From assembly GCA_050260095.1 (NCBI GenBank), contig JBLNBQ010000179.1:1-61819 (forward strand): DNA of 61,819 nt. Reading direction: 5' to 3'. Position 1 is the stretch's first letter; every line of letters starts with the position of its first letter. Position numbers and translations under genes: made by a program. A model generated the notes under the pieces. That model was given only the letters and a program-made list of their open reading frames with translations, had not been told where the DNA came from and ran no database searches. This stretch comes from Chitinophagales bacterium (GTDB lineage: Bacteria; Bacillota; UBA5301; DYFA01). Positions 39,141 through 61,819 of this stretch are shown piece by piece.

Positions 39141-39187
39141 AACCGGCAACTGGGTCTACCCTGACCCGGCTGCCGGTTTTTGTTTTT
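39141..39187 (+). terminator. Probable terminator after clpX
   Basis: AACCGGCA..GGGTC/GACCC..TGCCGGTT stem followed by a T-rich tail. Confidence 0.6.
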
Positions 39188-41100: not shown

Positions 41101-41134
41101 GACAGACCCGGCTAGAACGATTGGCGATAATAAG

Positions 41135-41170
41135 GGCGCCGGGGGATTCCCCCGGCGCCTCTCTGCCTTT
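41135..41170 (+). terminator. Hairpin/terminator after lonB
   Basis: GGCGCCGGGG/CCCCGGCGCC stem followed by a pyrimidine tail. Confidence 0.5.
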
Positions 41171-41366
41171 GGACGGTAGCCTAGAAGGAGAACCGTGCGC
41201 CGACGAACGGACCATTCACTTAAAGGATGTGCCGTTTGCTGGTATCCTGTTCCGGCCTTGGTGGGCGGTTACTTATCACGGCGGAACCCGTTTCCGCGTG
41301 CTTCCATGAATGGAAACGGTGGCAGGACGATATGCTGAGTGGGGAATTCTGTGAGGAGGGGTTAAC

Positions 41367-42038
41367 TTGAAGAGTTGGATGATCTGCCTCGTTCTGGCTG
41401 CTGTTCTCCTGCTCGGGTCGGTCTCGGTGGGGGCTGGCGATTTCGGAGCCACGGCATGCGCCGACTACTTGTTCGGGAAGCTCGAGTCTTGGTGGCGCAG
41501 CGATTCCGACGTCAACGGCTTCCTGCTACGGGCCGAAGCTCCCGTGACCGGACCTTTCGGGGTCCTCGGTGAAGCGGGCTTCCTGACTGCGAAGGACTAC
41601 TTCTATGGGGAGAGCGAATCCCTGGCGGCCGGGGATCTCAAGGTCCAGGACTGGAATCTCTTCGCCACGTACGCGCTGCCCATCGAGGGTGTTCAGCTTA
41701 AGGCGCTCGGGGGCTACGGCTCGGCTCGCTTCCCTGACGAAGCCGACGTTGCGTACGCCTTCAAGGGTTTCAAGCTGGGTGCCGCGGCTGAACTCAAGCC
41801 GGTGGAGAACCTCACCTTGAACGGCTTGGTAGCTTTTGGCCTAGGAGCGAAGGCTTGCTTCAACGAGGGGGATGAGTTCGACGCGAAGGCCACCGAGTAC
41901 CGCCTGTCTGGGAGTTACGCCGTGACCTCCAACGTCGCGATTGAGGCTGGATACAGCTACGCCAAGTACGAGTATACGGACGAGGCCCCGTACTTCGCCA
42001 CCAAGGGCTTCTTCGTGGGCGCCAAGGCCACGTTCTAA
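41367..42038 (+). CDS. Putative outer-membrane beta-barrel protein
   Basis: Signal peptide, alternating amphipathic strands (VAIEAGYSY), C-terminal GFFVGAKATF ending in Phe. Confidence 0.7.
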   Translation: MKSWMICLVLAAVLLLGSVSVGAGDFGATACADYLFGKLESWWRSDSDVNGFLLRAEAPVTGPFGVLGEAGFLTAKDYFYGESESLAAGDLKVQDWNLFATYALPIEGVQLKALGGYGSARFPDEADVAYAFKGFKLGAAAELKPVENLTLNGLVAFGLGAKACFNEGDEFDAKATEYRLSGSYAVTSNVAIEAGYSYAKYEYTDEAPYFATKGFFVGAKATF

Positions 42039-42068
42039 GCGGTTCGGAACCGAACAAAGGCTACACCG

Positions 42069-42100
42069 GAACGCCGGGGTTCACCCCGGCGTTCTTTCTT
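42069..42100 (+). terminator. Intrinsic terminator after the beta-barrel gene
   Basis: GAACGCCGGGG/CCCCGGCGTTC stem followed by TTTCTT. Confidence 0.7.
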
Positions 42101-42209
42101 ATGGTGGGCAGACGCAGGCGGATCGGCTCCCAGCCCTGGTAGATGGTTACGGCAGGGAATCCGTCCTCCGCAAGCGAAACGTCTTATGATTCGCAGAGGA
42201 GGACTAGGC

Positions 42210-44645
<2,436 letters not shown>

Positions 44646-44684
44646 GGGCAGGGATACGGACGGGCAGCGACGAAAGACGCAGGT

Positions 44685-45353
44685 ATGACTGCCGGCGGAG
44701 GAATGCTGATGGGGCCGGACCTAAAGATCGGACAGAGGCTCCAGGTTCGCTTGGCCTACACGGACGACCAGTGGTACTCCTCCCGGGTGGAGGATCTGGG
44801 TGACGAGGTCATCGTGATCGGGGCCCCGCTAAAGGGCGGGGCGGTCATCCCCATCCACCCTGGGGAACTGGTGGAAGGGTTCTACTCCCAGCCCGACGGC
44901 TTCTTCGTCTTCCAGGCGGAGGTCCTGGAACGCCGGCTGGAACCAGTGCCGGTGCTCTTGCTGCGCTGCCCCGACGGCATCCGCAAGGTCCAGCGGCGCC
45001 GCCACTTCCGCCTGCCGGTGGTGCTGCCGGTGTATTACGAGGTCAAGGGCGCAGAAACGACCCTCAAAGGGTCCACCCTCGATCTGTCCGGGGGTGGACT
45101 CTGCATTGCCACGGGCCAGCCGCTGAAGCCGGGTCAGGAGCTGCAGGTCAAGTTGGAGCTGTCCGACGGCACCACCATCACGGCGGCTGGGCGGGTGATC
45201 TCGTGCGCCGAGGTGGAGAACGCGCCCAAGCAGCGGCGGTATTCGTCGGGCATCCAGTTCGTCGACCTTCCCGCACCGGTTGAGGAACGCATCGTGAGCT
45301 TTGTCTTTAGGGAACAGCGGGAGCGCCGGTGGCGCGAGGCGGGTCGCTGGTAG
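44685..45353 (+). CDS. YcgR-like flagellar brake protein (PilZ domain)
   Basis: QRRRHFR and DLSGGG c-di-GMP-binding motifs. Confidence 0.88.
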   Translation: MTAGGGMLMGPDLKIGQRLQVRLAYTDDQWYSSRVEDLGDEVIVIGAPLKGGAVIPIHPGELVEGFYSQPDGFFVFQAEVLERRLEPVPVLLLRCPDGIRKVQRRRHFRLPVVLPVYYEVKGAETTLKGSTLDLSGGGLCIATGQPLKPGQELQVKLELSDGTTITAAGRVISCAEVENAPKQRRYSSGIQFVDLPAPVEERIVSFVFREQRERRWREAGRW

Positions 45354-45368
45354 ATTTGAGGTGACAGC

Positions 45369-46223
45369 ATGCATCAGATCTTGGAGAAGCGGGAGATAGC
45401 GCCGGGCATCCACTCGCTCAAGGTCCGGGCCGAGCGGGTCGCCCGCAAGGCCCGCCCGGGCCATTTCGTCATCTTACGGCTGCACGAAGAGGGGGAGCGC
45501 ATCCCCCTTACCATCGTCGGCACCGAGCCGGAGAAGGGCCTCGTCTGGCTCATCTTCCAGGAAATCGGCAAGTCCACCAAGGAGTTGGCCGGTTACCGGG
45601 AGGGCGACGCGCTCCTCGACCTGGCCGGTCCGCTCGGGCACGCGGAACCCGCCCGGAAGGTGGGTCCGGTTCTGTGCATCGGGGGCGGGGTCGGCACCGC
45701 GCCGGTGCTGCCACGGGCCAAGGAGTTCGCCGCCGCCGGCAACCTCGTGGTCGGCCTGGTCGGCGCCAGGTCCCAGGAACTGCTGATCCTGAAAGATGAG
45801 ATGGAGGCGGCCTGCGCGAAGGTCCGCTACTGCACCGACGACGGGTCGTTCGGGCACCACGGGCTCGTGACCGATCTGATCGGGCCCTTGAACGAAGAGC
45901 ACGGGCCGTTTGCCGAGGTGCTGGCGATCGGACCGGTCCCCATGATGCGGGCCTGCGTGGCGCGCTGCAAGGAATTGGGGCTTCCGGTCACGGTGAGCCT
46001 CAACGCCTTGATGGTCGACGGCACGGGGATGTGCGGCGCCTGCCGGGTGACGGTGGGCGGCAAGACGCGCTTCACCTGCGTAGACGGTCCGGAGTTCGAC
46101 GGCGCGCAGGTCGATTTCGCCGAACTCTCGGCGCGCCTGCGCCAGTACACCGAGGAAGAGCGGTCGGCTCTGGGCCGGTTCACTGCCAGGAAGGAGGGAA
46201 CCTGCCAATGCCAGGGCGCGTAG
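45369..46223 (+). CDS. nfnA: NfnA/SudB-like FAD/[2Fe-2S] subunit of electron-bifurcating transhydrogenase
   Basis: GERIPLTI, GGGVG, TDDGS, DGTGMCGACRV..CVDGPEFD. Confidence 0.85.
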   Translation: MHQILEKREIAPGIHSLKVRAERVARKARPGHFVILRLHEEGERIPLTIVGTEPEKGLVWLIFQEIGKSTKELAGYREGDALLDLAGPLGHAEPARKVGPVLCIGGGVGTAPVLPRAKEFAAAGNLVVGLVGARSQELLILKDEMEAACAKVRYCTDDGSFGHHGLVTDLIGPLNEEHGPFAEVLAIGPVPMMRACVARCKELGLPVTVSLNALMVDGTGMCGACRVTVGGKTRFTCVDGPEFDGAQVDFAELSARLRQYTEEERSALGRFTARKEGTCQCQGA

Positions 46224-47620
46224 CGATGCCGAAGCAGGCGCCGGAAGAGAGGCGGCGCAACTTCTCCGAGGTGGCGCTCGGCCTGTCGCCGGTGGAAGCG
46301 CAGGCCGAGGCCGGGCGGTGCCTCCAGTGCAAGAACCCCACCTGCGTGGAGGGTTGCCCCGTTCAGGTGCCGATCAAGGATTTCGTGGCCCTGGTGGCGC
46401 AGGGACGCTTCCGGGAGGCGGCGGCCAAGGTCAAGGAGAAGAACCGCCTGCCGGCCATCTGCGGGCGAGTCTGCCCGCAGGAGAACCAGTGCGAGGCGAA
46501 GTGCGTCTGGGCGAAGAAGGGCGTGCCCATCGCCATCGGCGCCTTGGAGCGCTTCGTGGCCGACGTCGACCGGGAGGCCGCCGCAGGCGAGGCTCCGGTC
46601 GCGCAGAAGGGCCTGTCCGGGAGCGCCGCCAAAGTGGCGGTGATCGGCTCGGGTCCGGCGGGCCTGACGGCCGCCGCCGAGCTGGCCCGCTTCGGCTACC
46701 GGGTGACGGTCTTCGAATCGCTCCATGCGCCGGGCGGGGTGCTCCGCTACGGTATCCCCGAGTTCCGGCTGCCCAAGGCGATCCTCGACGCGGAGATCGC
46801 CGGCCTCAAGGAGCAGGGCGTCGAATTCGAATGCAACGTGGTCGTCGGCCAGACCGTCACGCTGGACGATCTGTGGGCCGAGGGCTACGCCGCGGCTTTC
46901 GTGGCCACCGGCGCCGGCCTGCCGCACTTTCTCGGCGTCCCCGGGGAGAACCTGAGCGGCGTCTACAGCGCCAACGAGTTCCTCACCCGGGCCAACCTGA
47001 TGCGGGCTTACGCTTTCCCCGACACCGACACGCCGATCCGAACCGGCAAGAGGGTGGCGGTCATCGGCGGCGGCAACGTCGCGATGGATTCGGCCCGGAC
47101 TGCCCTGCGGCTGGGGGCCGAGGAAGTGATGATCGTCTACCGGCGGTCCCGGGCGGAGCTGCCGGCCCGGCACGAAGAGGTGGAGAACGCGGAGGAGGAG
47201 GGGATCGTCTTCCGCCTCCTTGAGAACCCGCTGCGCATCCTCGGGGACGAGCGGGGTCTGGCGACGGGTCTGGAGGTCCAGCGCATGGAGTTGGGCGAAC
47301 CCGACGCCAGCGGCCGGCGGCGCCCGGTGCCGGTGCCGGGGGCCACGGAGGTCATCCCGGTCGACACGGTGATCGTCGCGGTCGGCCAGGGTCCGAACCC
47401 GCTGCTCATCCGGTACACCCCGGGCCTTGAGACCACGCCAGCCGGGCAGATCGCCGTCGACGAACACCTGCGGACCAGCCTGCCGCGGGTCTTCGCCGGC
47501 GGGGACATCGCCACGGGCGCCGCTACGGTGATCCTCGCCATGGGCGCCGGAAAGCAGGCGGCCCGGGAAATCCATGCACTGCTAAGTGAAAAAAGTGACG
47601 AGAGCCAGACTAACGCATGA
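46208..47620 (+). CDS. nfnB: NfnB/SudA-like (GltD-family) NADPH oxidoreductase subunit
   Basis: RCLQC..C..GCP, CGRVCPQE.QCE, GSGPAG, GGGNVAMD, GGDI; overlaps nfnA. Confidence 0.85.
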   Translation: MPGRVAMPKQAPEERRRNFSEVALGLSPVEAQAEAGRCLQCKNPTCVEGCPVQVPIKDFVALVAQGRFREAAAKVKEKNRLPAICGRVCPQENQCEAKCVWAKKGVPIAIGALERFVADVDREAAAGEAPVAQKGLSGSAAKVAVIGSGPAGLTAAAELARFGYRVTVFESLHAPGGVLRYGIPEFRLPKAILDAEIAGLKEQGVEFECNVVVGQTVTLDDLWAEGYAAAFVATGAGLPHFLGVPGENLSGVYSANEFLTRANLMRAYAFPDTDTPIRTGKRVAVIGGGNVAMDSARTALRLGAEEVMIVYRRSRAELPARHEEVENAEEEGIVFRLLENPLRILGDERGLATGLEVQRMELGEPDASGRRRPVPVPGATEVIPVDTVIVAVGQGPNPLLIRYTPGLETTPAGQIAVDEHLRTSLPRVFAGGDIATGAATVILAMGAGKQAAREIHALLSEKSDESQTNA

Positions 47621-47647
47621 GGTAGTACAGCCAGGGAGGGATGCAGC

Positions 47648-49318
47648 GTGTTGTCCGACATCGAGATCGCCCAGGCAGCCAAGCTCCGGCCGATCGAAGA
47701 GATCGCCGCTCAGGTCGGTCTGACCGCCCACGACCTGGAACTCTACGGGCGGAACAAGGCGAAGGTCACCCTCGAGGCCTGCGAGCGGGTCAAGAACAAC
47801 CCCGCGGGGAAGCTCATCTTCGTCACGGCCATCACTGCTACGCCAGCCGGCGAGGGCAAGACCTGCACCGCGGTGGGGCTGACCCAGGCGTTGGGCCACC
47901 TGAAGAAGAAGGTCATGCTCTGCCTCCGGGAGCCGTCCCTAGGCCCGGTCTTCGGCGTCAAGGGCGGCGCGGCCGGCGGCGGGTATGCCCAGGTGCTGCC
48001 GATGGAGGACATCAACCTTCATTTCACCGGCGATTTCGCGGCCATCACGGCGGCGCATAACCTGCTCGCCGCGCTGCTCGACAACCACCTCGTCCAGGGC
48101 AACGAACTCGACATCGACTTCCAGCGTCTGCTGTGGCGCCGGGTCATGGACATCAACGACCGGATGCTCCGTGACATCGTCGTGGGGCTCGGCGGCAAGG
48201 GGAACGGCTTCCCCCGGGAGACGGGCTTCGACATAACCGCGGCCAGCGAACTCATGGCCGTCCTCTGCCTCGCCCAAGACTGGGAAGACCTGCGCCGGCG
48301 CCTCGGCCGTTTGGTCGTAGCGTACAACCGGAAGGGCGACCCGGTCACCGCCGCCGATCTGAAAGCGGTCGGCGCGATGCTGGTTCTCTTGAAGGACGCG
48401 ATCAAGCCCAACCTCGTCCAGACGCTGGAAGGGCAGCCGGCCTTCATCCACGGCGGGCCGTTCGCCAACATCGCGCACGGCAACAACTCGATCATCGCGA
48501 CCCGCACGGCGCTGGGGCTGGCCGACTATGTGGTGACCGAGGGCGGCTTCGCCGCCGACCTGGGCGCGGAGAAGTTCTTCGACATCGTCTGCGCTCAGAG
48601 CGGCCTCAGGCCCGATGTCGCGGTGCTGGTCTGCTCGGTCAGGGCGCTGCACATGCACGGCGGGGCGACCAAGGAGGAACTGAACAACCTCAACCTGACG
48701 GCCCTGGAGAAGGGCTGCGAGAACCTGGCGAAGCACTTGGAGAACGTGCGCAAGTTCGGGGTGCCCACGGTGGTCGCCGTGAACCGCTTCCCGCAGGATC
48801 ACCCGGAGGAGCTTGCCTTCATCAAGGAGTACGTCGAGTCGCGGGGCGGCACGGCCGCCATCTCCGAGGTCTTCACCCACGGCGGACCGGGCGGGGTGGC
48901 CCTGGCCGAGGCGGTGCTGAAGACGCTCGAGACCCAGCCCTCCGACTTTCACCCGCTTTATAAAGCCAGCTTGCCGCTGCGGCAGAAGCTCGACCTGCTG
49001 GCCGTGGAGATCTACGGCGCGAGCCGGGTGCAGTACACGCCCCAGGCCGAGAAGGACATCAAGGAGATCACCCGGCTGGGGCTCGACAACCTGCCGCTCT
49101 GCGTCGCCAAGACGCAGTTCTCCCTCTCCGACGACCCCACGCTGCTCGGGGCGCCGCACGGGTGGAAGCTGACCGTGCGGGAGATTCGCCCGTCGGTCGG
49201 GGCCGGGTTCCTGGTCGTCTACACCGGCGAAATCCGCACGATGCCGGGGTTGCCGAAGCGCCCGGCGGCGGAGGCGATGGACATCGACGCGCAGGGGCGG
49301 ATTACCGGCCTCTTCTAG
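47648..49318 (+). CDS. fhs: Formate--tetrahydrofolate ligase
   Basis: [40 protein letters not shown]. Confidence 0.96.
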
Positions 49319-52542: not shown

Positions 52543-53877
52543 CCGGGCCAGGTCTAGCAGGGATTCCCGCCGGTTCAAGGCCGGTTCGTCGAGCACGGCC
52601 GCGAGCAGGAGCTTGAGCAGGCGCCCGATGGCCGGACCCGGTGGGAGGGCAAACTCGCGCATCAGGTCTTCACCGGAGACCGCCAGATCGGTTGGGCGCA
52701 CCGGCGGCGCCGCCGCCAGCACCCGGCTGACGGCGGTTTCCAGGTTTTCCAGCACGGTGAGGCGACGGTCGCCCGGCTGAAGCGGTCGCATCGCCAACAG
52801 GTCCGCCCGGCGGAGCGCGACGAGCGCGAGGAGATCGTCCGGCCCGACCTCGGCCAGAAGGCGCCGGAGGCCGGCCTCCCCTTCGGCGGGAGTCCAGTGG
52901 AACATGTGGCGCTCCACCAGCCGCACCACCCGCTCGACCACTTCTCCGGGGAAACGGAGCCGGCGGAGGGCGCGCCCGGCGATTTCGGCGGAGACGCGGT
53001 GGTGGCCGGGGAAGAGCGGGGCGCCGCTCGCGTCCTCGGTCCGCGTCGCCACCTTGCCGAGGTCGTGGAAGAGGGCGACTAGCCGGAGCGGCAGCACAGG
53101 CGCAATGAGCGAGACCGCCCGTACAGTGTGGGAGAAGACCGTGTAGGCGTGGTGGTGGCTTTGCCGGAGGCCGTAAGTATCCCCCAGTTCGGGGAGGAGG
53201 ACGGGGAGAAGACCGCCGACTCGGAGCAGTTGCAGCCCGCGCCGGGCCTGGGGGGCGACGAGCAGTTTCGTCAGTTCGTCGCGCTGGCGCTCGCTGGAGA
53301 CAGCGCCGAGCAGCGGCGCCCGCTCCCGGCAGGCCGCCAGGACCCGCTTGACGGGGCGGAAGCCTAATTCGGCCGCGAACCGGCAGGCTCGGAGCATCCG
53401 CAGCGCGTCCTCGCCGAAGCGGCTGGCCGGGTCTCCCACGGTGTCGAGCCGACGGTGGGCCAGATCGGCCAGGCCGCCGTGATGGTCGATGATACCGGTC
53501 TCCGGATGGTAGGCGAGGGCGTTGATGGTGAAGTCACGCCGGGCTAGGTCGCCTTCGAGCCCTTCGGCGAAGGTGACGGCGGCGGGATGCCGTCCGTCCA
53601 GGTACGGACCGTCGGTGCGGAAGGTGGTCACTTCGACGCCGCCGAGTTCCGGGTCGAGTGCGGTGACGGTGCCGTAACGCAGTCCGGTCGGGCGGGCGCC
53701 CGGAAAGAGGCGGAGCACCTCTTCGGGGCGGGCCGCGGTCGCCACGTCCCAGTCTTTGGGGCTTCGTTGCAGCAGGAGATCGCGTACGGCACCGCCGACC
53801 ACGAACGCCGGGTGGCCATGCGCATTTAGGCGCTCGATGACCATTAGAACGCCTTGCGGGATGCTCCCAGCGTCCAA
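52438..53877 (-). CDS. cca: CCA tRNA nucleotidyltransferase with HD domain; 3' end overlaps the convergent phosphatase gene
   Basis: VGGAVRD..DWDVAT, EVTTFR plus flexible loop, DLARRDFTINA, EDALRMLR, FHDLGK. TTG start inferred from the RBS. Confidence 0.85.
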   Translation of the reverse strand: MDAGSIPQGVLMVIERLNAHGHPAFVVGGAVRDLLLQRSPKDWDVATAARPEEVLRLFPGARPTGLRYGTVTALDPELGGVEVTTFRTDGPYLDGRHPAAVTFAEGLEGDLARRDFTINALAYHPETGIIDHHGGLADLAHRRLDTVGDPASRFGEDALRMLRACRFAAELGFRPVKRVLAACRERAPLLGAVSSERQRDELTKLLVAPQARRGLQLLRVGGLLPVLLPELGDTYGLRQSHHHAYTVFSHTVRAVSLIAPVLPLRLVALFHDLGKVATRTEDASGAPLFPGHHRVSAEIAGRALRRLRFPGEVVERVVRLVERHMFHWTPAEGEAGLRRLLAEVGPDDLLALVALRRADLLAMRPLQPGDRRLTVLENLETAVSRVLAAAPPVRPTDLAVSGEDLMREFALPPGPAIGRLLKLLLAAVLDEPALNRRESLLDLARLSLGRVVADEAAGEVRGVVQSQKDGSAFPPSRHR

Positions 53878-54154
53878 CCCTCGCCCCTCCTCAGGCTGAT
53901 GCTCCCTATCGAGTACCCCGTTCATTTTACCACGAGATGTCTTCCCCCGTACCGCCAGGCAAAAAGCCCTCCACAACCTGCAGCCCAACTCTCTGTTCCT
54001 TGGCGGTTTGGGCCATGGCTGCACGCGCCTCGACGTCGCTACACGCCCCAAGACACCGATACACGGTCTCCCGTGCCTAATGGTCGGCCGTTTCGGCCCA
54101 TGTCGCCCCCGGACGTCTTTGGATATGTATGCACCGTACTAGAAAGGGACGTCC

Positions 54155-54895
54155 ATGGCCAGGTACGCATGGACGAGTGGAGGGATGAGCATGTACGGGA
54201 TGACCCGCTTGGCGGCGAGATCTTCGACGCCTCAACCAACGCCGGTCGAGCCTGCGTGGAAGCGACAGTCAGTTTACGCGGAGGCGGTCGGTGCGGTACC
54301 TAGCGCCAGTGGGCTAGCCGAAGGTATTGCCATGCACGAGCGGGCGGTCAAAGGAGACAAAGCAGCTACCCTGCAGGCCGTCAAAGTGCTCAGCGCGGTC
54401 TGCGAGAGAGAACCGGGCAATACTCTGGCGCTGGCTTACCTGGGCAGCGCCACCGCCCTGCTGGGCCGCGACGCCATCGACCCAAACGAGCAGTTCAGCC
54501 ACGCCATGCGCGGCCTCAAACTCCTGGATCAGGCGGTTGAGCGGGCCCCGGACGACATCCAAGTGCGAACGCTGCGCGGGTACGTTTGTCTCAACCTGCC
54601 CCAGGCGTACTTTCAACGGGGACGGTGCGCAGTCGAGGACTTCGGCCACCTCGCGCGGCTCCACGAATCAGGCCGGGCTTGTTTGCCCGAGGGTTTCTAC
54701 TGCGAAGTGCTCTACAACCTGGGTCTTGCCTGCAAGGAGACCGGCCGCCTGGCTGAGGCGTACGAGACCTGGAAGAAGCTCCTCGCGGTCACCACGGACC
54801 CAAGATACCGGGCGCTCCTCAAGAACGAAGGCATGGTCAACGACCCTTTTGCGGACTCGAGCAAGGGGGGGGCGAGATCAGGTCATCGCCGGTGA
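54155..54895 (+). CDS. TPR-repeat protein; start uncertain
   Basis: Helical repeats (ALAYLGSA, LLDQAVERAPDD, LYNLGLA). Confidence 0.7.
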   Translation: MARYAWTSGGMSMYGMTRLAARSSTPQPTPVEPAWKRQSVYAEAVGAVPSASGLAEGIAMHERAVKGDKAATLQAVKVLSAVCEREPGNTLALAYLGSATALLGRDAIDPNEQFSHAMRGLKLLDQAVERAPDDIQVRTLRGYVCLNLPQAYFQRGRCAVEDFGHLARLHESGRACLPEGFYCEVLYNLGLACKETGRLAEAYETWKKLLAVTTDPRYRALLKNEGMVNDPFADSSKGGARSGHRR

Positions 54896-56007
54896 ACGGC
54901 CCACTCTCCGGCGAACTCCAGGAAGCGATTCGCCTGCACGACATGGCTCTCGCCGGTGACAGATCGGCGGGAGAACGGGCGCTTGCTCAACTCTCGGAAA
55001 TCGTGCGCCGCGACCCCGGCAACGCACTGGCCGCTGCCTATGAGGCCAGTGCCATGTCGCTCACGGGGCGGAACTCGGGGGATACCGCCCGGATGTTCGA
55101 ACGCGCCATCAAGGCGATGATCGCGCTGGACAGGGTGGTTGAGCGTGAGCCAAGCAACGTGCAGGTGCGCCTGATACGGGCACGGCACAGCCTCCGTTTG
55201 CCGGAACCCTTTTTCCACCGGACCGCTACGGCCATCAGCGATTTCGAATGGCTCCTGCACGTACTCCAAACCAGGCCGGGAGCACTAGCCTCTTCCGACG
55301 TTGAGTCCGTCCGGCGCGACCTGGCGCTCGCCTACGAACGCCTCGGCATGAAAGCGGAGGCGGAACGAGCTTGGCGAGAACTACGGGACAGCCGTCCGGC
55401 GCCGGACCTCCTGGCCTTGGCGGAGAGTCGCCTTGCCGGCCGCACACCCACCCTGGCGTTGCTCCCCCCTGCTGGACAGGATGAGCTGCTAAAGGAAGGC
55501 ATCCGACAGCATCACCTGGGGGTCTCCGGCGACCGGGAGGCCGTTCAGAAAGCCCTGGGCCTCTTGGCTTCGGCCCATGAACGGGACCCCAAAAACCCTC
55601 TGGCGCTGGCCTACTACGGCAGTGCGGTCGCATTGAGCGCCCGCGATTCCGCGGAACCCGGAGAGATGTACACCAAGGCGATCCAAGGACTGATGCTGCT
55701 CCGGCAAGCCGTGGACCAGGAGCCCGGCAACCCCACTATCCATGCCCTACGTGGCTACCTCTGCTTCTCGTTGCCCGAGTCATTCTTCCACTTGTCGCGG
55801 CAAGCCGTCCAGGACTTTCTCCTGGTCGTGTCGGCCTATGAACAGGGCAGCCCCGACGTGCCCGAGGCTGGATACTGGATGGTGCTTCGCGACCTTGGGT
55901 TCGCTTACCAGAAGCTGGGGGAAGAGGAATCTGCTCGACAGACTTGGAGGAAGCTTCGCCGGGTCTGCACTGATAAGCGCTTTCTTGATGTCCCATCAAT
56001 CGTGTGA
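54892..56007 (+). CDS. TPR-repeat protein with an internal duplication, paralogous to the upstream gene
   Basis: The unit GI..H..GD..A..L....P.N.LA.AY..SA....LPE.FF occurs twice here and once in 54155-54895. Confidence 0.75.
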   Translation: MNGPLSGELQEAIRLHDMALAGDRSAGERALAQLSEIVRRDPGNALAAAYEASAMSLTGRNSGDTARMFERAIKAMIALDRVVEREPSNVQVRLIRARHSLRLPEPFFHRTATAISDFEWLLHVLQTRPGALASSDVESVRRDLALAYERLGMKAEAERAWRELRDSRPAPDLLALAESRLAGRTPTLALLPPAGQDELLKEGIRQHHLGVSGDREAVQKALGLLASAHERDPKNPLALAYYGSAVALSARDSAEPGEMYTKAIQGLMLLRQAVDQEPGNPTIHALRGYLCFSLPESFFHLSRQAVQDFLLVVSAYEQGSPDVPEAGYWMVLRDLGFAYQKLGEEESARQTWRKLRRVCTDKRFLDVPSIV

Positions 56008-56018
56008 GGTGATCCGAG

Positions 56019-57350
56019 ATGACATCCCGTTTTGACCTCCTGCGCCGCCAGGCATCACTGCCGCTCATAGAGCGGCACTTCCCTGAAGAAGGGATCCAAG
56101 CGGACGCCATACCGCTCGAGCGGCTCCGGGTCTTCCAGGACGAGGCGGTGCGTGACGTAGTTGCGCACGCCCAAGCAAAGTCGCCCTTCTACCAGACGAA
56201 GTTCGCAGAAGCCGGAGTTCCTTTGGGCTCGGTCAAGGGAGTATCTGACCTCCCCCTCCTGCCGTTCACCACCAAGGATGACTTGCGAGGCGATCCCTGG
56301 CGCCTGCTAACCTGCGATAAGCAGGACGTTTCCATCGTCCACGTCTCGACCGGCACGACGGGCGGCGAGCAGATCTACATCTTCCACACCTGGCAGGACT
56401 TCTTCCTCAACGACCTGGGAATCGGATACTCTTCGCTCGTGCCGGTCGGACCAGGCGATCGGTGCCTCAACGCTCTACCCTACGAGATGAGCTCTGCGGG
56501 ACTCGCCTTCCATAAGGTCTTCATGGACGGCTGTGCGGCAACGGTGATTCCGGTGGGGAAGGGCGGAGCCTATTCCACCCCCGCAAAGACCGTGAAAGTG
56601 ATGAGAGACCTGGAGCCGACCGTCGTGATCACCACTCCCTCGTACGCGGTGACGCTTGCCGAAGCCGCGGCCGAGGCTGGGCTTGATCTTAAGTCTCTCC
56701 CCATCCACACCATGTGGGTGACCGGGGAAGGCTGCTCATCGGCCTTCAGGGACCGGCTGCAACAGATATGGGGTACGGTGATCAACTCCTATTACGGCTC
56801 GCTCGAGGCGGGAGCTTTGGGGGCGGAGTGCGCGAAGCACGCCGGCTACCACGTCATGCTCGGACACGTGGCGGTCGAGATCGTCGATCCGAAGACGGGG
56901 GAGCCGCGGGAGCCGGGGGAGATCGGGGAAATCGTCGCCACCTGCCTCCTCCGCTACGGTTCCCCTCTGATTCGTTATCGCACGGAGGATCTGGGCTACC
57001 TGGAGTGGGATCAGTGCGAGTGTGGAGTCGCCCTGCCACGCCTCTTCCTTCGGGGACGCCTCGTCGACCAGGTGAAGGTGAGAGGCGTCGAGTTCTCCCC
57101 CTACTACCTCGAGGAGTTCCTGATGCGGCTGCCGGAGGTGGGGCTCTGGTACCAGTTCGTAGTGCCGGAGGAGGGAGCCGAGCAACTGAAGATCCGTGCG
57201 GAGCTCCAACCGGGAATCGAACCCACGGCGCAGCTTGCCGACGAACTGGCAAGCCGACTCGAGTTCTGGGTTGGAGTGCCGTGCGAGTTCGAGTTCGTCG
57301 ACCGGTTGCCCCGACCGGGCAGCAAGACCCTCCGGGTCGTACGTCGGTAA
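56019..57350 (+). CDS. Phenylacetate-CoA ligase-like adenylating enzyme
   Basis: LPFTTKDDLR, HVSTGTTGG, GEG, YYGSLE, PLIRYRTEDLG. Confidence 0.88.
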   Translation: MTSRFDLLRRQASLPLIERHFPEEGIQADAIPLERLRVFQDEAVRDVVAHAQAKSPFYQTKFAEAGVPLGSVKGVSDLPLLPFTTKDDLRGDPWRLLTCDKQDVSIVHVSTGTTGGEQIYIFHTWQDFFLNDLGIGYSSLVPVGPGDRCLNALPYEMSSAGLAFHKVFMDGCAATVIPVGKGGAYSTPAKTVKVMRDLEPTVVITTPSYAVTLAEAAAEAGLDLKSLPIHTMWVTGEGCSSAFRDRLQQIWGTVINSYYGSLEAGALGAECAKHAGYHVMLGHVAVEIVDPKTGEPREPGEIGEIVATCLLRYGSPLIRYRTEDLGYLEWDQCECGVALPRLFLRGRLVDQVKVRGVEFSPYYLEEFLMRLPEVGLWYQFVVPEEGAEQLKIRAELQPGIEPTAQLADELASRLEFWVGVPCEFEFVDRLPRPGSKTLRVVRR

Positions 57351-57364
57351 GGGGGGGAGCCAAA

Positions 57365-58144
57365 ATGATAATCGACGCTCACGCTCATGTGTCGACGACC
57401 GACTACGGCAGCCGGGAACTTCTGCTCTCTCAACTCGACGAAAGCGGCGTCGACGCGGCGCTCGTCGTTCCCGGAGGGATGGCCGATGTCCGGCGGATGA
57501 CGGATTACATCACGGGACGGGCCACCCCGGAAACCGTACCGAACAACAGCTACGTGGAGGAGAGTGTCCGCGCCGAACCCCAGAGGCTGGGGGGGTTCTT
57601 CTGCGTGGATCCCCACCTTCCGGGTGCGACCGAAGCCCTAGCGGACGCCTTGGCACGCGGCTTCCTTGGCCTTAAACTCTCACCCATCACTCACCAATTC
57701 TCTTTCGCCAGCAAGGCTGTGGCGGAGCTCTCGGAGCTCTGCGGGCAACGAGGGGTTCCGGTCTATAGTCATACGCTCTTCAACCCAGGAGCGTCGACGG
57801 CTCGGTTCGTGAGTCTGGCCAGAGAGTTTCCCGGAACGAACTTCATCCTGGGGCACCTGGGCTTCGGTCCGGCGGACCAGGAGGGGCTGGAAGCGGCCTG
57901 CGCGCTCGACAACTTCTTCTTGGAGAGTTCCACCGGGAACTTCCTTCACCTGCAAGCCATCCTCGACAAGGCCGGGCCGGCGAAACTGATCTTCGGTTCG
58001 GAGTTTCCCCTCTCTCATCCGAAGGCCGAACTCGAGAAGATCTTGTTGCTGAAGGCGCCCGGCGAGGCCCTCGACCTGATCCTGGGCGGCAACATCATGG
58101 CGCTGACTGGCTGGCGGCCGGGTCCAAAGGGGGGGGAGGCATGA
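57365..58144 (+). CDS. Amidohydrolase family protein
   Basis: MIIDAHAH, GLKL, FILGHLG, LIFGSEFP; ATG at 57365 after a G-rich RBS. Confidence 0.85.
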   Translation: MIIDAHAHVSTTDYGSRELLLSQLDESGVDAALVVPGGMADVRRMTDYITGRATPETVPNNSYVEESVRAEPQRLGGFFCVDPHLPGATEALADALARGFLGLKLSPITHQFSFASKAVAELSELCGQRGVPVYSHTLFNPGASTARFVSLAREFPGTNFILGHLGFGPADQEGLEAACALDNFFLESSTGNFLHLQAILDKAGPAKLIFGSEFPLSHPKAELEKILLLKAPGEALDLILGGNIMALTGWRPGPKGGEA

Positions 58145-59391
58145 CGTGCGAGTCCAGGCTTGATGCCCTCAATCTGACGTTAGCCCGGGCGCGCCGGGGA
58201 GAGTTCTATCGGGAACGTCTCCCCGCGACCCCACTGAACTCGCTAGCTGCGCTAGCGGAGATACCCCTCACGACCAAGGAGGATTTGCGTTCCGCCTCCC
58301 CTTACGGCCTGCTGTGTGTGCCGCTGGCCGAGGTGGCCCAGTATCACGAGTCCTTCGGCACCACGGGTACGCCCGTGTCGGCCTGGTACACGGAACAGGA
58401 CCTGCGTGACAACGACGCGCAGATCGATTTCGGAGATGTGGGTCTGGGGGCAACCGACCTCATGCTCATTCGCTTCCCGTATGCCATCTCTTCGGCAGCC
58501 CACCTCTTCCACCACGCGGCACAGGCCAGGGGGGCCGGCGTGATTCCCGCCAGCAGTCGTTCGACGGTCAGCCCGTACCCCCGGGTCATCACGTTGCTGC
58601 ACAAACTGGGCGTGACGGTCATGGCCGCGCTTCCCCTGCAGGGTCTGCTCTTGGCTCGCACCGCAGAGCTGATGGGTTTTGTCCCAAGCCGCGACTTTCC
58701 CGAGCTCCGCGCCATCTGCACGGCGGGCGAAACCCTTACCCCGGTCCGAAGAGACCTCCTCCATCAGCTATGGGGAGTTCCGGTCTTCAACTTCTATGGC
58801 TTGACCGAACTCGGCAACGTCGCCTCCGACTGCCGATTCGGACACCTGCACCCACACGAGAACTTTCTCGTCGAAGTCCTGGCGGACGACCTCCGTTCAC
58901 CTGCAGAGCCAGGTCAGGCTGGTCATCTGGTGGTCACCACCCTCAGGCGCCAGGCTTCACCCGTCATCCGGTTTCTTACCGGCGATCGCGCCCGGCTCGT
59001 ACCCGGTTGTCCCTGCGGGCGAGGGGACTACCTGGAACTGCGAGGGCGCACCGCGGACGCAATCGAAGCCGGTGGGCGGTTGTTTGATCAGTGGGAGCTC
59101 GAGGAGATCGTCTCGCACTTACCCTGCAAACGATTCTGGGCCGTGGCCCCAGCCCCGTGGGGGCTTCACTTCGTGGTGGAGCAGGAGACGCCCTGGGATA
59201 CGGTGAGCCCAGACTTGCGCCGCTTCCTTGAGCGCAAGTTCGGTGTCGGATTGGCCTTTGAAGTAGTCCATCAAGGGTCTTTTCACGAACCCCTGGAGCT
59301 TCTATCCGCCTCGGAGGTGGGCAAACCGCGCTACATCTACACCGAGGAGGAGCTCCGGCGCGGCGCTCACCTCGGTTCCAAAAGAACATGA
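58141..59391 (+). CDS. Second phenylacetate-CoA ligase-like adenylating enzyme
   Basis: IPLTTKEDLR, HESFGTTGTP, AGE, FYGLTE, PVIRFLTGD. Confidence 0.85.
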   Translation: MTCESRLDALNLTLARARRGEFYRERLPATPLNSLAALAEIPLTTKEDLRSASPYGLLCVPLAEVAQYHESFGTTGTPVSAWYTEQDLRDNDAQIDFGDVGLGATDLMLIRFPYAISSAAHLFHHAAQARGAGVIPASSRSTVSPYPRVITLLHKLGVTVMAALPLQGLLLARTAELMGFVPSRDFPELRAICTAGETLTPVRRDLLHQLWGVPVFNFYGLTELGNVASDCRFGHLHPHENFLVEVLADDLRSPAEPGQAGHLVVTTLRRQASPVIRFLTGDRARLVPGCPCGRGDYLELRGRTADAIEAGGRLFDQWELEEIVSHLPCKRFWAVAPAPWGLHFVVEQETPWDTVSPDLRRFLERKFGVGLAFEVVHQGSFHEPLELLSASEVGKPRYIYTEEELRRGAHLGSKRT

Positions 59392-59397
59392 GACGAG

Positions 59398-60534
59398 GTG
59401 TGTCCGATGGGATATGAAGGAAGCAACCGCCCGGCATCCGGCCGCGAAATCTGGTTCGACGGGCGGAACGTGCCATTGGATCGGCAGAACACGTGGGAAC
59501 TCATCAACAACTCAGCACTGCAGTCTCTCCTGGTCACTGCTGCCCAGCGACGGGAAGGGCGCTTCCCCACCAAGAGCCGGCTGATCACCGAGGTCACAAC
59601 CGAGGAGGACGCCCGGGGCTTGGCTGAAGGGGAGACGGTCGCCTCCGGGGACTGCGCTCTCTTGGCCACTCTTCGGGCTAACGGTTTCCGGACCTGTCTC
59701 TTGCTCAAGATCGATAGCAAGGAAGCTTTGGAAGCCGCCTGGCAAGCAGCCTCCGAACATGACTACGCGGCGGTGGAGTTCGACCTGCCTACCAACATCC
59801 CATTGGAGCTGATCTTGGCCCGGCTGCCGGGGCGCCGGACTCGTGTGCTGAAACGAGAGACCACGGCGGAAGGAGTCGAAGTCGCGTTCGGAGTCATGGA
59901 ACAGGGTAGTGACGGCGTTCTCCTGGCCACCGAAGACCCAACGGAGTTGGGGCGAATAAGCCGTCTCCTGCTCCGTCAGGAGACGGGCCGGATCCAGCTG
60001 CAACCAGTTGGAATCACGGCCGTCCGGCACGTCGGGATGGGGGTTAGGGCCTGCGTGGACACGACCGGCCTCATGGGTCGAGATGAAGGGATGCTGGTCG
60101 GATCCACTTCGAACGGTGGAATACTCGTTTGCTCGGAGACGCACTACCTGCCCTACATGAACTTGAGGCCTTTCCGGGTCAACGCGGGGGCGGTCCACTC
60201 GTACATCTGGCAGCCCCAGGGTCGTGCCGAATACCTGACCGACCTGGCTGCTGGGAGCAAGGTGCTAAGCGTGAGTTGGCAAGGGGAGACCCGCCCGTTG
60301 ACCGTGGGGCGCGTCAAGCTGGAGGTTAGGCCGTTACTCCTTATCCAGGGAGAGGCGGCCGGTGTGCCTGTCAACGTGATCGTCCAGGATGACTGGCATA
60401 TCCGCCTGATGGGGGTGGGCGGGGAACCGAGAAATGCGACCGAGGTACGACCGGGTGAGGAACTGTTGGGTTACCTTTGCCCGGCGGGTCGTCACGTGGG
60501 ACTGCCGGTCGAGGAAACGATCGTGGAGCGCTAA
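59398..60534 (+). CDS. 3-dehydroquinate synthase II family protein (GriH-like 3,4-AHBA synthase)
   Basis: IPLELILA, RACVDT, EGMLVGS, RPFRVNAGAVHSY, VGRVKLEVRPL, GRHVG..EETIVER. Confidence 0.88.
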   Translation: MCPMGYEGSNRPASGREIWFDGRNVPLDRQNTWELINNSALQSLLVTAAQRREGRFPTKSRLITEVTTEEDARGLAEGETVASGDCALLATLRANGFRTCLLLKIDSKEALEAAWQAASEHDYAAVEFDLPTNIPLELILARLPGRRTRVLKRETTAEGVEVAFGVMEQGSDGVLLATEDPTELGRISRLLLRQETGRIQLQPVGITAVRHVGMGVRACVDTTGLMGRDEGMLVGSTSNGGILVCSETHYLPYMNLRPFRVNAGAVHSYIWQPQGRAEYLTDLAAGSKVLSVSWQGETRPLTVGRVKLEVRPLLLIQGEAAGVPVNVIVQDDWHIRLMGVGGEPRNATEVRPGEELLGYLCPAGRHVGLPVEETIVER

Positions 60535-60554
60535 GAAACAAGGGGGAGAGATCG

Positions 60555-61337
60555 ATGGACGGTAAAGACTTGCGGCTTCGTCGCTTGTTCAAGTCGGAGC
60601 GGCTGCTCCTGGTGCCAATGGATCATGGCGTGACCCTCGGGGCGGTGGGCGGATTGGGGGACATCCGGGGGGCGGTGCGGGCGGTGGCGGCGGGAGGAGC
60701 CGACGGGGTGGTGGTGCACAAGGGGATCGCTTGCCAGATCATGCCGGAGCTGACGGCGTCAAACCGGTGCGAATTGGTCGTTCATCTGTCCGCATCGACA
60801 AGCCTGGCCCCGGACCCCAACCGTAAGGAGTTGGTCGGGTCAGTGGAGCGGGCGGTTCGCCTCGGTGCGGCCGGGGTATCGGTTCACGTCAACCTGGCCA
60901 GCCAGTCTGAGGCGAGGATGCTGCGTGATCTGGGCCTCGTGGCCGAGGACTGCGCGGCTTGGGGCATGCCGCTCTTGGCGATGATGTACGTGCGGGATGG
61001 CAGCCGGGCCAGCGAATACGACCCGGAGAAGCTGGCACACGCCGCAAGAGTGGCTGAGGAACTCGGGGCAGACATCGTAAAGGTTAACTACACCGGTGAT
61101 CCTGAATCATTCGCTCGGGTCGTCGAAGCCGTCCGCCTGCCGGTGATCATCGCTGGCGGGCCGAAGTCGAGCCGAACGGAGGCTCTGCTGGCTGCGATTA
61201 GGGGCGCGCTGCAGGCGGGGGCCAGGGGCGTGGCGATTGGGAGAAACCTCTTCGAGGACGCCGATCCTCGTGCCCTAACGGCCTCGATCCGGCGGATCCT
61301 CGATGGCCAGGAGGGGGAGCCGCGTGGCGGAGATTGA
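60555..61337 (+). CDS. DhnA-type aldolase (ADH synthase / GriI-like)
   Basis: VPMDHG, HKG, HLSAST, ELGADIVKVNYTG, IAGG, GRN. Confidence 0.88.
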   Translation: MDGKDLRLRRLFKSERLLLVPMDHGVTLGAVGGLGDIRGAVRAVAAGGADGVVVHKGIACQIMPELTASNRCELVVHLSASTSLAPDPNRKELVGSVERAVRLGAAGVSVHVNLASQSEARMLRDLGLVAEDCAAWGMPLLAMMYVRDGSRASEYDPEKLAHAARVAEELGADIVKVNYTGDPESFARVVEAVRLPVIIAGGPKSSRTEALLAAIRGALQAGARGVAIGRNLFEDADPRALTASIRRILDGQEGEPRGGD

Positions 61338-61536
61338 CTGGCTTACGATCCCGGAGGCCTGCTCCTATCTCAAAGTTTCCCGCTCGACCCTCTACAATTG
61401 GGAGAAAACGGGCCGCCTGGCAATGTTCAGGTTTGGCGGGATGGTGCGCATCCGCCGGGACGACCTCAATCGCCTCGCCCGTACCAGGACGCAAGTGAAA
61501 GGCCCCGGAGAAGAGGAGAGGCAGTCCCCGGAGTAA
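61324..61536 (+). CDS. Excisionase-like helix-turn-helix (HTH_17) DNA-binding protein
   Basis: WLTIPEACSYLKVSRSTLYNW..G.L...FGG.VRIRRDDL. Confidence 0.8.
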   Translation: MAEIDWLTIPEACSYLKVSRSTLYNWEKTGRLAMFRFGGMVRIRRDDLNRLARTRTQVKGPGEEERQSPE

Positions 61537-61559
61537 AGGCGAAGCAACTGGCGCCCTGT

Positions 61560-61819
61560 GGAGCTTCCGCTGGGGGAGGCAGCTGATCCGGCGCCGATTC
61601 GCCGCGACGAAGCACACCCCAACCCTTGCGATGAGTTCGGCGAGACGGACAGACGCGGAAGTGGGGGGGGCCCGCGGGCGGGGGGTGGGGGCCCCCCCGC
61701 CGGGTGGGGCCCCCCCACTTCCGCGTCTGTCCGTCTCGCCGAACTCATCGCAAGGGTTGGGGTGTGCTTCGTCGCGGCGAATCGGCGCCGGATCAGCTGC
61801 CTCCCCCAGCGGAAGCTCC
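61560..61819. repeat. Perfect 110-bp inverted repeat (61560-61669 / 61710-61819) around a 40-nt G/C-run spacer at the window end
   Basis: The final 110 nt are the exact reverse complement of 61560-61669. Confidence 0.9.

Follow-up and report, generated by a model that had tools for sequence, protein, structure and literature searches.

The five closely spaced genes at positions 56019–61337 of the window (the whole 61,819-nucleotide stretch analysed here) probably form a biosynthetic operon for closoxazole-type benzoxazoles with a closoxazole A-like product, a reading to which we assign a probability of roughly 0.85. Judged by homology, the operon appears to be another copy of the recently described pathway that leads from 3-amino-4-hydroxybenzoate (3,4-AHBA) to benzoxazoles, and it does not serve as another way of making aromatic amino acids. 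Support comes from gene content, gene order, homology, the retention of catalytic motifs, redundancy with the shikimate genes and the placement of the synthase. A first-pass annotation had suggested a closoxazole-type cluster, and gene-for-gene homology with pfxA-E and clxA-E supports that suggestion.

All five genes lie on the + strand, spaced from −4 to +20 bp apart, and promoter-like or terminator-like sites were not enriched in a consensus scan; with this spacing and no such enrichment they fit a single operon, as originally proposed. Each gene was found where it had been placed, with two starts corrected. The amidohydrolase ORF as listed (56714–58144) is over-extended, and the gene begins instead at the ATG at 57365, which lies 14 bp past the ligase stop behind a GGGGGGAG ribosome-binding site and gives a protein of 259 aa. 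For the aldolase, a 286-aa ORF from a TTG at 60477 was set aside in favour of the ATG at 60555, preceded by AAGGGGGAG, which gives 260 aa. When the window proteins were compared by tblastn with 80 loci fetched with the amidohydrolase, all five were found in 20 of them, 18 of which have the order of the window (ligase 1, amidohydrolase, ligase 2, synthase, aldolase), and the genes downstream vary between loci.

The unit extends further upstream than the first-pass annotation had it, and includes two + strand genes, TPR gene 1 (54155–54895, 246 aa) and TPR gene 2 (54892–56007, 371 aa), the second ending 11 bp before ligase 1. Together they encode three TPR-like modules of about 185 residues: one in TPR gene 1, which has generic TPR matches in Pfam, and a tandem pair in TPR gene 2 that is paralogous to it. 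The second module of TPR gene 2 was modelled by AlphaFold as nine helices (pLDDT 93.4), and a Foldseek search with it against the PDB gave generic TPR matches only. The two genes are fused as a single ORF of 605–701 aa in loci L006, L011 and L013, and among 400 genomes sampled from the phylum, 19 are ClxD-positive and 18 of these have modules of this kind; in the Bacillota the TPR genes and the five genes make up one conserved unit. No such modules were seen in any of the 11 myxobacterial loci or near clxA-E. The divergent intergenic region at 54052–54154, between the first TPR gene and a CCA-adding enzyme gene on the − strand, is presumed from its position to be the operon promoter region; a consensus scan found no sigma-70-like site within it.

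In the model that we propose from homology, the aldolase and the DHQ-synthase-II-like enzyme would together supply 3,4-AHBA without drawing on the shikimate pathway. Ligase 2 (58141–59391, + strand), an ANL ligase of the NatL2/ClxA/PfxC type, would adenylate one aryl acid and couple it to a second 3,4-AHBA, and the amidohydrolase (57365–58144, + strand), of the ClxD/PfxB type, would act as the benzoxazole-forming cyclase, converting the dimer by cyclodehydration to a meta-substituted benzoxazole. Ligase 1 (56019–57350, + strand), of the ClxC/PfxA type, would then join the carboxylate of the benzoxazole to a third aryl unit, giving the closoxazole A-like product.

The two ligases differ in their closest relatives. 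Ligase 1 is PaaK-like, with AMP-binding (E 9e-15) and AMP-binding_C_2 domains, and shares 59% identity with PfxA and 38% with ClxC, compared with just 24–30% for the ClxA/PfxC type; it retains the P-loop STGTTGG and the C-terminal lysine. Ligase 2, which also retains its P-loop and C-terminal lysine, is 49–50% identical to PfxC and 36% to ClxA. Its top solved structure is 9s3l (E 5.7e-69), shown to be ClxA, followed by full-length matches to AjiA1 (6wuq, E 9e-60) and NatL2 (6siw, E 1.7e-56). Neither ligase reaches the curated PaaK equivalog cut-offs of NCBIfam (224 vs 700 and 162 vs 646 for ligase 1; 124 vs 700 and 97 vs 646 for ligase 2). The amidohydrolase matches Amidohydro_2 (E 9e-25) and is identical over its full length to PfxB at 52% and to ClxD at 39% of positions. 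An alignment of eight sequences including ClxD and PfxB has 49 invariant columns, among them the N-terminal HxH; the invariant residues include H6, H8, H110, H136, H164, D171, E187 and E213. A PDB search with this protein gave no NatAM-like match.

The moderate identity shared with the characterised enzymes (33–59%) means that substrates and end product may not be those of the known clusters. The same enzymes might make a related product other than closoxazole A, for example linear amide or ester oligomers of 3,4-AHBA, a benzoxazole with a different aryl starter (4-aminobenzoate or hydroxybenzoates), or closoxazole C, D or another regioisomer. In the Pfx study (PMC12118335), PfxA and PfxC are reported to have relaxed substrate choice and two regioselectivities, and the cyclases to use different substrates, an amide for ClxD and an ester for PfxB; the Bacillota synthases, moreover, form a branch of their own and their loci carry the TPR genes that are absent from the studied clusters. 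Nevertheless, the five functions stand in the order of pfxA-E with no tailoring genes among them, the downstream genes vary from locus to locus, and the cyclase residues common to ClxD and PfxB are kept. We regard a different product as unlikely and retain a closoxazole A-like compound as the preferred prediction.

A second possibility is that the aldolase and synthase are an archaeal-type AroA'/AroB' entry to the shikimate pathway and have unrelated ligases as mere neighbours. The synthase (59398–60534, + strand) belongs to the PF01959 family (E 4e-96), is 33–46% identical to archaeal and Desulfobacterota members, and has close homologues publicly named '3-dehydroquinate synthase II'. The database lists a protein of 375 aa for it, and the start may therefore be three codons later. 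Against an AroB' assignment, it misses every DHQS-II equivalog cut-off (249 vs 485, 244 vs 392, 206 vs 569 and 200 vs 629). The window synthase, ClxB and PfxD share one NCBIfam ranking, with NF002625 first and BagC_FevH second (252 bits vs a cut-off of 750 for the window protein), whereas a Desulfobacterota AroB' fragment scores highest with an equivalog DHQS-II model (429.5 vs a cut-off of 392) and places BagC_FevH last. No solved DHQS-II structure was found in the structure search.

The first-pass annotation had proposed phylogeny as the means of separating GriH-like from AroB' proteins, and here the synthase falls with ClxB and PfxD. A tree of 66 rows is divided, by a branch whose SH-aLRT support is 100%, into 27 AroB' rows (13 archaeal and 14 Desulfobacterota) and 39 rows that include the window protein, ClxB, PfxD and ClxD-linked proteins, the bacterial rows on this side having mostly been picked by ClxD linkage. 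One of them (L104, from G018) is labelled ClxD-linked though it is without a ClxD-like match in the phylum sample. In AU tests, for both of which the groups were chosen after the tree was seen, forcing the 24 Bacillota rows together with the 14 Desulfobacterota rows cost 156.8 lnL units and was rejected (p-AU 2.9e-46), whereas a placement of just the window protein and L006, its nearest relative, with the AroB' rows was not (delta lnL 19.8, p 0.116), a result on the side of the AroB' reading. Both the synthase and the aldolase trees were built by a quick method, contain long branches and are without the Streptomyces GriH/GriI sequences. Taken together, these placements favour a ClxB/PfxD/GriH-type enzyme, a predicted 3,4-AHBA synthase.

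The other half of the proposed phylogenetic check, on the aldolase (60555–61337, + strand), does not discriminate from AroA'. This DeoC/DhnA-type class I aldolase (DeoC, E 8e-55) is ClxE/GriI-like, and its predicted reaction is the condensation of aspartate semialdehyde and a C3 sugar phosphate; it is 43% identical to ClxE, 33% to PfxE and 39–51% to archaeal and Desulfobacterota AroA', and its closest solved structure is MJ0400 (E 1.7e-69). It passes the cut-off of TIGR01949, the AroA'/ADH synthase equivalog (306.2 vs 299.45), a point for the AroA' reading; however, ClxE, whose cluster leads to closoxazoles in E. coli, scores 323.2, so that TIGR01949 does not discriminate. In the aldolase tree the Bacillota group has only 93% support, ClxE falls weakly (84%) among the AroA' rows, and a branch of length 4.9 leads to the myxobacterial aldolases. 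As neither the Bacillota group nor ClxE is cleanly set apart from AroA' in this tree, the aldolase gives no independent support, and neither it nor ClxE can be told from AroA' by sequence.

The genome encodes a pair of DAHP synthases, scoring 511 and 443 bits vs an NCBIfam cut-off of 335, and an AroK-AroB fusion (TIGR01357, 349 vs a cut-off of 305), with a chorismate synthase gene adjoining the AroK-AroB region; no PF01474 match was found in the genome, which is 97.5% complete. The aldolase/synthase pair is redundant with the canonical DAHP synthase/AroB route in this genome. Canonical AroB was found in all 15 of the synthase-bearing relatives tested (of 18), and a ClxD-like amidohydrolase in 17 of the 18 other synthase-bearing genomes of the 400-genome phylum sample. 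By contrast, in a sample of 121 genomes from the phylum of G403, reached via the Thermodesulfobacteriota-titled locus L054, a PF01761 match is absent from 25 of 39 PF01959-positive genomes vs 10 of 82 PF01959-negative ones. The pair is also packed with the ligases, at gaps of 6 to 20 bp. An AroA'/AroB' entry is thus very improbable here, and a role of the pair in 3,4-AHBA supply for a closoxazole-type pathway is favoured. That the operon serves the breakdown of aromatic acids, its PaaK-like proteins acting as aryl-CoA ligases and its Amidohydro_2 protein as a decarboxylase or hydrolase, is scarcely credible: phenylacetate-CoA ligases are the top NCBIfam and PDB matches of ligase 1, and 2,3-dihydroxybenzoate decarboxylases are among the PDB matches of the amidohydrolase, but the PaaK scores lie far below their cut-offs, ligase 1 has far closer orthologues in PfxA and ClxC, the decarboxylase matches are weak and non-significant (E 0.27–0.43), and Pfam finds no paa ring-oxidation or beta-oxidation genes within the operon.

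The composition of the cluster differs from that of its host, a spore-forming Bacillota lineage. Its GC content is 63.6% vs 67.5% for the genome, which ranks it at the 6th percentile among 1602 segments of 7.2 kb, and its GC3 is 0.73–0.78 vs 0.83–0.93 in most + strand neighbours, with percentiles of GC3 being rough as the ORF set includes spurious ORFs. The codon usage noted by eye as less GC-skewed than in the flanking genes is thus borne out qualitatively. The cluster is also absent from a conserved site in a relative. Low GC, this empty site and a patchy distribution suggest that the cluster was acquired horizontally, as had been proposed, and neither date nor prove the event.

Compared with known systems, the aldolase and synthase belong to the same two protein families as the archaeal-type AroA'/AroB' (ADH synthase and DHQ synthase II), but unlike these they are redundant with a canonical route and linked to ClxD, and the synthase stands apart on the tree and below the DHQS-II cut-offs. 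In Streptomyces, 3,4-AHBA is synthesised by GriI/GriH (grixazone) and BagB/BagC (bagremycin). These are of the same two enzyme families as the window pair, which scores far below the NCBIfam exception-model cut-offs for BagB/BagC (FevI/FevH), at 252 vs 750 and 219 vs 500; ClxB and ClxE fall short of them too.

The pathways to nataxazole and AJI9561 (NatL2, AjiA1, NatAM) follow the same logic of ATP-dependent aryl ligation and then cyclisation by an amidohydrolase. They start from 3-hydroxyanthranilate and give ortho-substituted benzoxazoles, whereas meta-substituted ones are predicted for the window, and Pfam and NCBIfam find neither 3-hydroxyanthranilate supply nor carrier-protein domains in the seven operon genes. 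The parallel with NatAM drawn in the first-pass annotation holds for function but not for sequence, ClxD-type and NatAM-type enzymes being described as unrelated in sequence (16% similarity) by Horch et al. (PMC9400959).

The clxA-E cluster of Clostridium cavendishii DSM 21758 (L039), whose expression in E. coli leads to closoxazoles (Horch et al. 2022, PMC9400959), shares all five protein types with the window (38, 39, 36, 38 and 43% identity for ligase 1, amidohydrolase, ligase 2, synthase and aldolase), including an aldolase that is likewise AroA'-like to curated models, but in a different order: ligase 2, synthase, ligase 1, amidohydrolase, aldolase. The pfxA-E cluster of Pyxidicoccus fallax DSM 14698 (L032) differs from the window in its very distant aldolase (PfxE, 33%), and the window operon in being preceded by three TPR modules and in its Bacillota host. 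In other respects the two correspond: gene content and order agree, all five genes share a strand, identities are 59, 52, 50, 44 and 33% for the proteins as listed above, and there are neither carrier-protein nor tailoring genes; the Pfx enzymes turn 3,4-AHBA into closoxazole A in vitro (Lernoud et al. 2025, PMC12118335).

Seven tightly spaced ORFs lie on the + strand between 54155 and 61337 of the window, and the five gene types named in the first-pass annotation are each confirmed by Pfam and NCBIfam. These are a PaaK-like ANL ligase (ligase 1, 56019–57350), an Amidohydro_2 protein (from 57365), a second, PaaK/NatL2-like ligase (ligase 2, 58141–59391), a DHQ-synthase-II-family protein (the synthase, 59398–60534; PF01959, E 4e-96) and a DeoC/DhnA-type aldolase (from 60555), all on the + strand. 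They are preceded by two ORFs (54155–54895 and 54892–56007) that have generic TPR matches only in Pfam and NCBIfam. Two gene starts were corrected: the amidohydrolase begins at the ATG at 57365 behind GGGGGGAG, 14 bp past the ligase stop, and not at the GTG of a long overlapping ORF, and the aldolase begins at the ATG at 60555 behind AAGGGGGAG, 20 bp past the synthase stop. From the intergenic spacing, which runs from -4 to +20 bp, we infer that the seven genes form one operon; a consensus scan of 53800–61819 for promoter-like and terminator-like sites gives counts no higher than in shuffled sequence. The window is one entire contig (61819 bp) of a 2.69 Mb draft genome of 197 contigs, 97.5% complete, and the contig ends 482 bp beyond the last cluster gene.

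Parts of the window are also present in sequencing runs. Six soil-metagenome runs contain small shares of it (0.07–0.18 of sampled words), and two RNA-library runs yield short contigs, 6 from one and 3 from the other, each matching at 99% or more and scattered over both TPR genes, ligase 1, the amidohydrolase, ligase 2 and the synthase, one of them crossing the ligase 2/synthase junction (59236–59454). Because RNA libraries can contain DNA, these matches are not counted as evidence of expression or habitat.

To place the cluster we used the amidohydrolase to retrieve 80 loci from a collection of species-representative genomes and searched these with the window's seven proteins by tblastn. All five biosynthetic proteins are present in 20 of the 80 loci, 18 of which have the window's gene order. 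Two closoxazole clusters serve as references, pfxA-E of Pyxidicoccus fallax and clxA-E of Clostridium cavendishii, and their genes are named here as in PMC12118335 and PMC9400959. According to Horch et al. (PMC9400959), E. coli expressing clxA-E produces closoxazoles, 3-amino-4-hydroxybenzoate (3,4-AHBA) supply is assigned to ClxB and ClxE, the first ligation falls to ClxA, heterocycle formation to ClxD and attachment of the final unit to the ligase ClxC. The text and supplement of that paper also report that clusters of this type are widespread, Firmicutes included, with Syntrophomonas and Desulfitobacterium entries among the amidohydrolase nodes of the supplement.

The catalytic features of these enzymes are retained in the window. 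When the amidohydrolase is aligned with its Clx and Pfx counterparts, 49 columns are invariant across 8 sequences, among them the N-terminal HxH and other His, Asp and Glu positions, and alignments of the same kind show the P-loop, YGxTE and GD motifs and the C-terminal lysine preserved in the two ligases. Among solved structures ligase 2 matches 9s3l best (E 5.7e-69), which is ClxA itself, ranked above AjiA1 and NatL2; a PDB sequence search with the amidohydrolase returned only 3cjp, an uncharacterised amidohydrolase (E 1e-7), and insignificant decarboxylase matches, and one with the synthase returned no solved structure at E <= 0.001. At its C-terminus (columns about 470–494 of alignment A2) ligase 2 has a conserved extra tail of ~14 residues, shared by the window, its closest cluster-bearing relative (L006) and a further related locus (L011), shorter in PfxC and another related locus (L013) and absent from ClxA; the tail correlates imperfectly with TPR-gene presence. 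The genes 3' of the cluster differ among relatives (UPF0047, isochorismatase, Rce1-like or none) and show no conservation, so we propose no tailoring step.

The first-pass annotation had itself set one outcome against its reading, namely that the aldolase/synthase pair is the archaeal-type AroA'/AroB' entry to the shikimate pathway, and we examined this by redundancy, co-occurrence, curated models and phylogeny. The genome has a canonical shikimate route in addition to the pair. It encodes two type-I-beta DAHP synthases, which score 511 and 443 bits where the cut-off is 335, one gene adjoining a hisC-like aminotransferase gene and the other prephenate dehydratase, together with an AroK-AroB fusion (TIGR01357, 349 against 305) that adjoins chorismate synthase.

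Co-occurrence points the same way. Among 400 other genomes of the window's phylum, the synthase is found in 18 and a ClxD-like amidohydrolase in 19. Both occur together in 17 of the 18 with the synthase, and the one without an amidohydrolase match (G018) has the second-weakest synthase match. Canonical AroB is present in all 15 synthase-positive genomes searched (G365, G380 and G397 being left out of the 18). The contrast is a sample of 121 genomes from the phylum of G403, which was reached via a Thermodesulfobacteriota-titled locus (L054). Here PF01959 is found in 39 genomes and PF01761 in 86, and 25 of the 39 genomes with PF01959 have no PF01761 match, compared with 10 of the 82 that lack PF01959, a complementary pattern that is expected of a true AroB'. 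Within the 400-genome sample, two genomes (G038 and G217) have a ClxD-like amidohydrolase adjoining TPR genes and no 3,4-AHBA synthase match; either the precursor genes were missed or unassembled, or these are variants that use another aryl acid.

The two kinds of synthase rank differently on curated NCBIfam models. For the window's synthase, ClxB and PfxD alike the best model is NF002625 ('family protein') and the second BagC_FevH, the Streptomyces 3,4-AHBA synthase, and each protein falls under every DHQ synthase II equivalog cut-off, whereas a Desulfobacterota AroB' fragment has an equivalog model first and above cut-off and BagC_FevH lowest. The aldolase is a different matter, as it scores above the ADH synthase equivalog cut-off TIGR01949 (306.2 against 299.45); since ClxE passes too (323.2), that name cannot separate the two functions.

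The synthase phylogeny (66 rows; LG+C20 in IQ-TREE, after removal of the duplicates L087, L092 and L107, the truncated L015 and L102 and the very long branch L038) is divided in two by a branch of length about 1.85 with 100% SH-aLRT support. On the AroB' side are 13 archaeal rows, which come from 61 sampled genomes in the phylum of one titled Bathyarchaeota, and 14 Desulfobacterota rows, of which 11 have a source genome with no AroB match. The remaining 39 rows lie on the opposite side. They are those of the window, ClxB and PfxD together with proteins whose loci or genomes were selected via ClxD, a linkage through which nearly all rows on this side were gathered; the exception is L104 from G018, a genome with no ClxD-like match. 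The window's synthase falls within a 24-row Bacillota group (99% support) beside that of L006 (65–67% identity). A tree constrained to unite these 24 rows with the 14 from Desulfobacterota is worse by 156.8 log-likelihood units (p-AU 2.9e-46), and one that moves the window's synthase and L006 alone to the AroB' side is worse by 19.8 units, which is not significant (AU p 0.116), the groups in both tests having been picked after the tree was seen. Both this tree and that of the aldolase are quick trees with several long branches, and neither includes Streptomyces GriH/GriI or a characterised archaeal enzyme by name. As far as such a tree goes, the synthase half of the pair lies with ClxB and PfxD and not with AroB'.

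The aldolase tree (61 rows) was dropped as a discriminator, as it does not separate 3,4-AHBA-type from AroA'-type proteins: the Bacillota group has 93% support, ClxE falls weakly (84%) with AroA' rows and the myxobacterial PfxE group is very distant. The aldolase shares 39–51% identity with AroA' of archaea and Desulfobacterota, 43% with ClxE and 33% with PfxE, and is not diagnostic for either function. Taken together, the canonical route, the co-occurrence with ClxD, the model ranking and the synthase tree rule against an alternative shikimate entry. Curated models would misname two genes of the operon as alternative shikimate pathway and one as phenylacetate-CoA ligase, which assignment to a closoxazole-type cluster corrects.

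The cluster lies among core genes of a spore former. GerA, spore-permease and GerAC germination genes are situated at 30912–35065; the host is probably an endospore former. Further along, 35859–49318 encodes trigger factor, ClpX, two Lon-family proteases, a PilZ protein and formate-tetrahydrofolate ligase, and HypF/HypD/HypE-like maturation genes are found at 12208–16991. A MutL-like protein, methylaspartate mutase E chain and methylaspartate ammonia-lyase at 23803–28158 point to a methylaspartate route of glutamate fermentation.

The composition of the cluster differs from that of its host. Together with the TPR genes it has a GC content of 63.6% against 67.5% for the genome (6th percentile of 1602 equal-length windows), and the codon usage noticed by eye as less GC-skewed than in the flanks is borne out qualitatively, with GC3 of 0.73–0.78 against 0.83–0.93 in most neighbouring + strand genes of a crude ORF set. 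The segment 49184–61500 is collinear with L006 (1–12255), including FdhD, a hypothetical gene and an opposite-strand CCA-enzyme gene, at 63–84% amino-acid identity in the best pieces. As the L006 cluster is GC-poor too (64.2% against 69.1% upstream and 66.0% downstream), the GC dip predates the split of the two lineages. We then compared L006 (4543–13842) and the window (54052–61819) with G073, a 99% complete genome of the same genus as the L006 relative but without a match to the synthase, amidohydrolase or TPR gene. At the corresponding site (L135, G073:C32:96000-113500, about 12900–14320) only about 1.4 kb separates the CCA gene from the next conserved large gene, and this interval holds no homologue of a TPR gene or of any of the five biosynthetic genes. 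The unit of roughly 9 kb is therefore cleanly present in one case and absent in the other, at a site that is itself conserved in the chromosome. The cluster is absent from all eight sampled genomes of the same class, and Bacillaceae and Paenibacillaceae rows are nested among clostridial-type rows in the synthase tree. Taken together, these observations indicate gain and loss of a discrete ~9 kb unit and its transfer within Bacillota, and they suggest the horizontal acquisition proposed in the first-pass annotation.

The two TPR genes consist jointly of three paralogous modules of ~185 residues each. L006, L011 and L013 carry all three modules in one ORF of 605–701 aa immediately before ligase 1, and in a fourth locus (L016) they are split as in the window. 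Of the retrieved loci, 17 have module matches adjoining the cluster, each of them from Bacillota or an unclassified MAG, and tblastn finds none in the 11 myxobacterial loci or at C. cavendishii. In the 400-genome sample TPR gene 2 is matched in 23 other genomes at E <= 1e-10. Of the 19 genomes with ClxD, 18 are among these, mostly with the two no more than a few kb apart; the remaining one (G274) carries the most divergent ClxD. Five genomes (G135, G200, G254, G364 and G388) have weaker single-module matches (E 1e-19 to 1e-35) and no ClxD-like amidohydrolase, and the module family therefore occurs outside the cluster as well. Extra single-module ORFs of 160–240 aa are seen beside the cluster in relatives.

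The modules have a signature of their own. Alignment A3 combines window 54287–56004 with 47 module stretches from 21 related loci, and across the 50 modules F114 is invariant and G28, A32, Y56, R99, R102, P110, A120, D123, F124, L147, L150, Y154 and L170 are nearly so. The structure predicted for one module from these 50 sequences is of high confidence (pLDDT 93.4, pTM 0.88), has nine helices and matches only generic TPR scaffolds in the PDB by Foldseek (PTPIP51, LGN, MamA and PilF; E >= 3.5e-4, TM 0.4–0.6), and the ESM Atlas returned only clusters named 'tetratricopeptide repeat protein'. Neither TPR nor tetratricopeptide appears in the main text of the two closoxazole papers (PMC12118335, PMC9400959) or in a supplement of Horch et al., and a full-text literature search for benzoxazole with tetratricopeptide gave no paper that, judged by title and opening of the abstract, concerns such clusters.

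We conclude that the TPR genes belong to the conserved unit in Bacillota. A tentative proposal, to which we give a probability of about 0.3, is that the closoxazole-type pathway of Bacillota is a seven-gene unit in which a tri-module TPR protein (or split pair), marked by its near-invariant Tyr, two Arg, Pro, Phe and Asp-Phe, acts together with the pathway. It might, for instance, scaffold both ligases and the cyclase, or bind or sequester the carboxylated benzoxazole. In that case the product in Bacillota would have a cell-associated physiological role, and the pathway a part revealed by neither studied system. The TPR tri-module gene is the practical lead, given its near-perfect co-occurrence with the ClxD-type cyclase in the phylum and its going unmentioned in the two defining papers, and its protein is the part that deserves experiment.

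Comparison with those two systems bears on the product. P. fallax DSM 14698 (L032) has pfxA-E in the window's order at 59, 52, 50, 44 and 33% identity, but in C. cavendishii DSM 21758 (L039) the order differs, with clxC, clxD, clxA, clxB and clxE at 38, 39, 36, 38 and 43%. As described in the enzymatic part of Lernoud et al. (PMC12118335), PfxC, PfxB and PfxA convert 3,4-AHBA to closoxazole A in vitro, the substrate of PfxB is an ester and not an amide, and both Pfx ligases are flexible in substrate and regiochemistry; the masses given for the pfx system are m/z 289.08 for the ligation product, 271.07 for the benzoxazole and 406.10 for closoxazole A. We infer the exact product from this likeness, and identities of 33–59% together with the flexibility of the Pfx enzymes allow for a variant product. 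The cluster adds a soil lineage of Bacillota, high in GC and spore-forming, to the hosts of a pathway with a pharmaceutically interesting scaffold. The original reading as a closoxazole-type benzoxazole cluster is supported by gene-for-gene homology to pfxA-E and clxA-E, the kept motifs and the placement of the synthase, and the cluster is a further member of the family that these two systems define.
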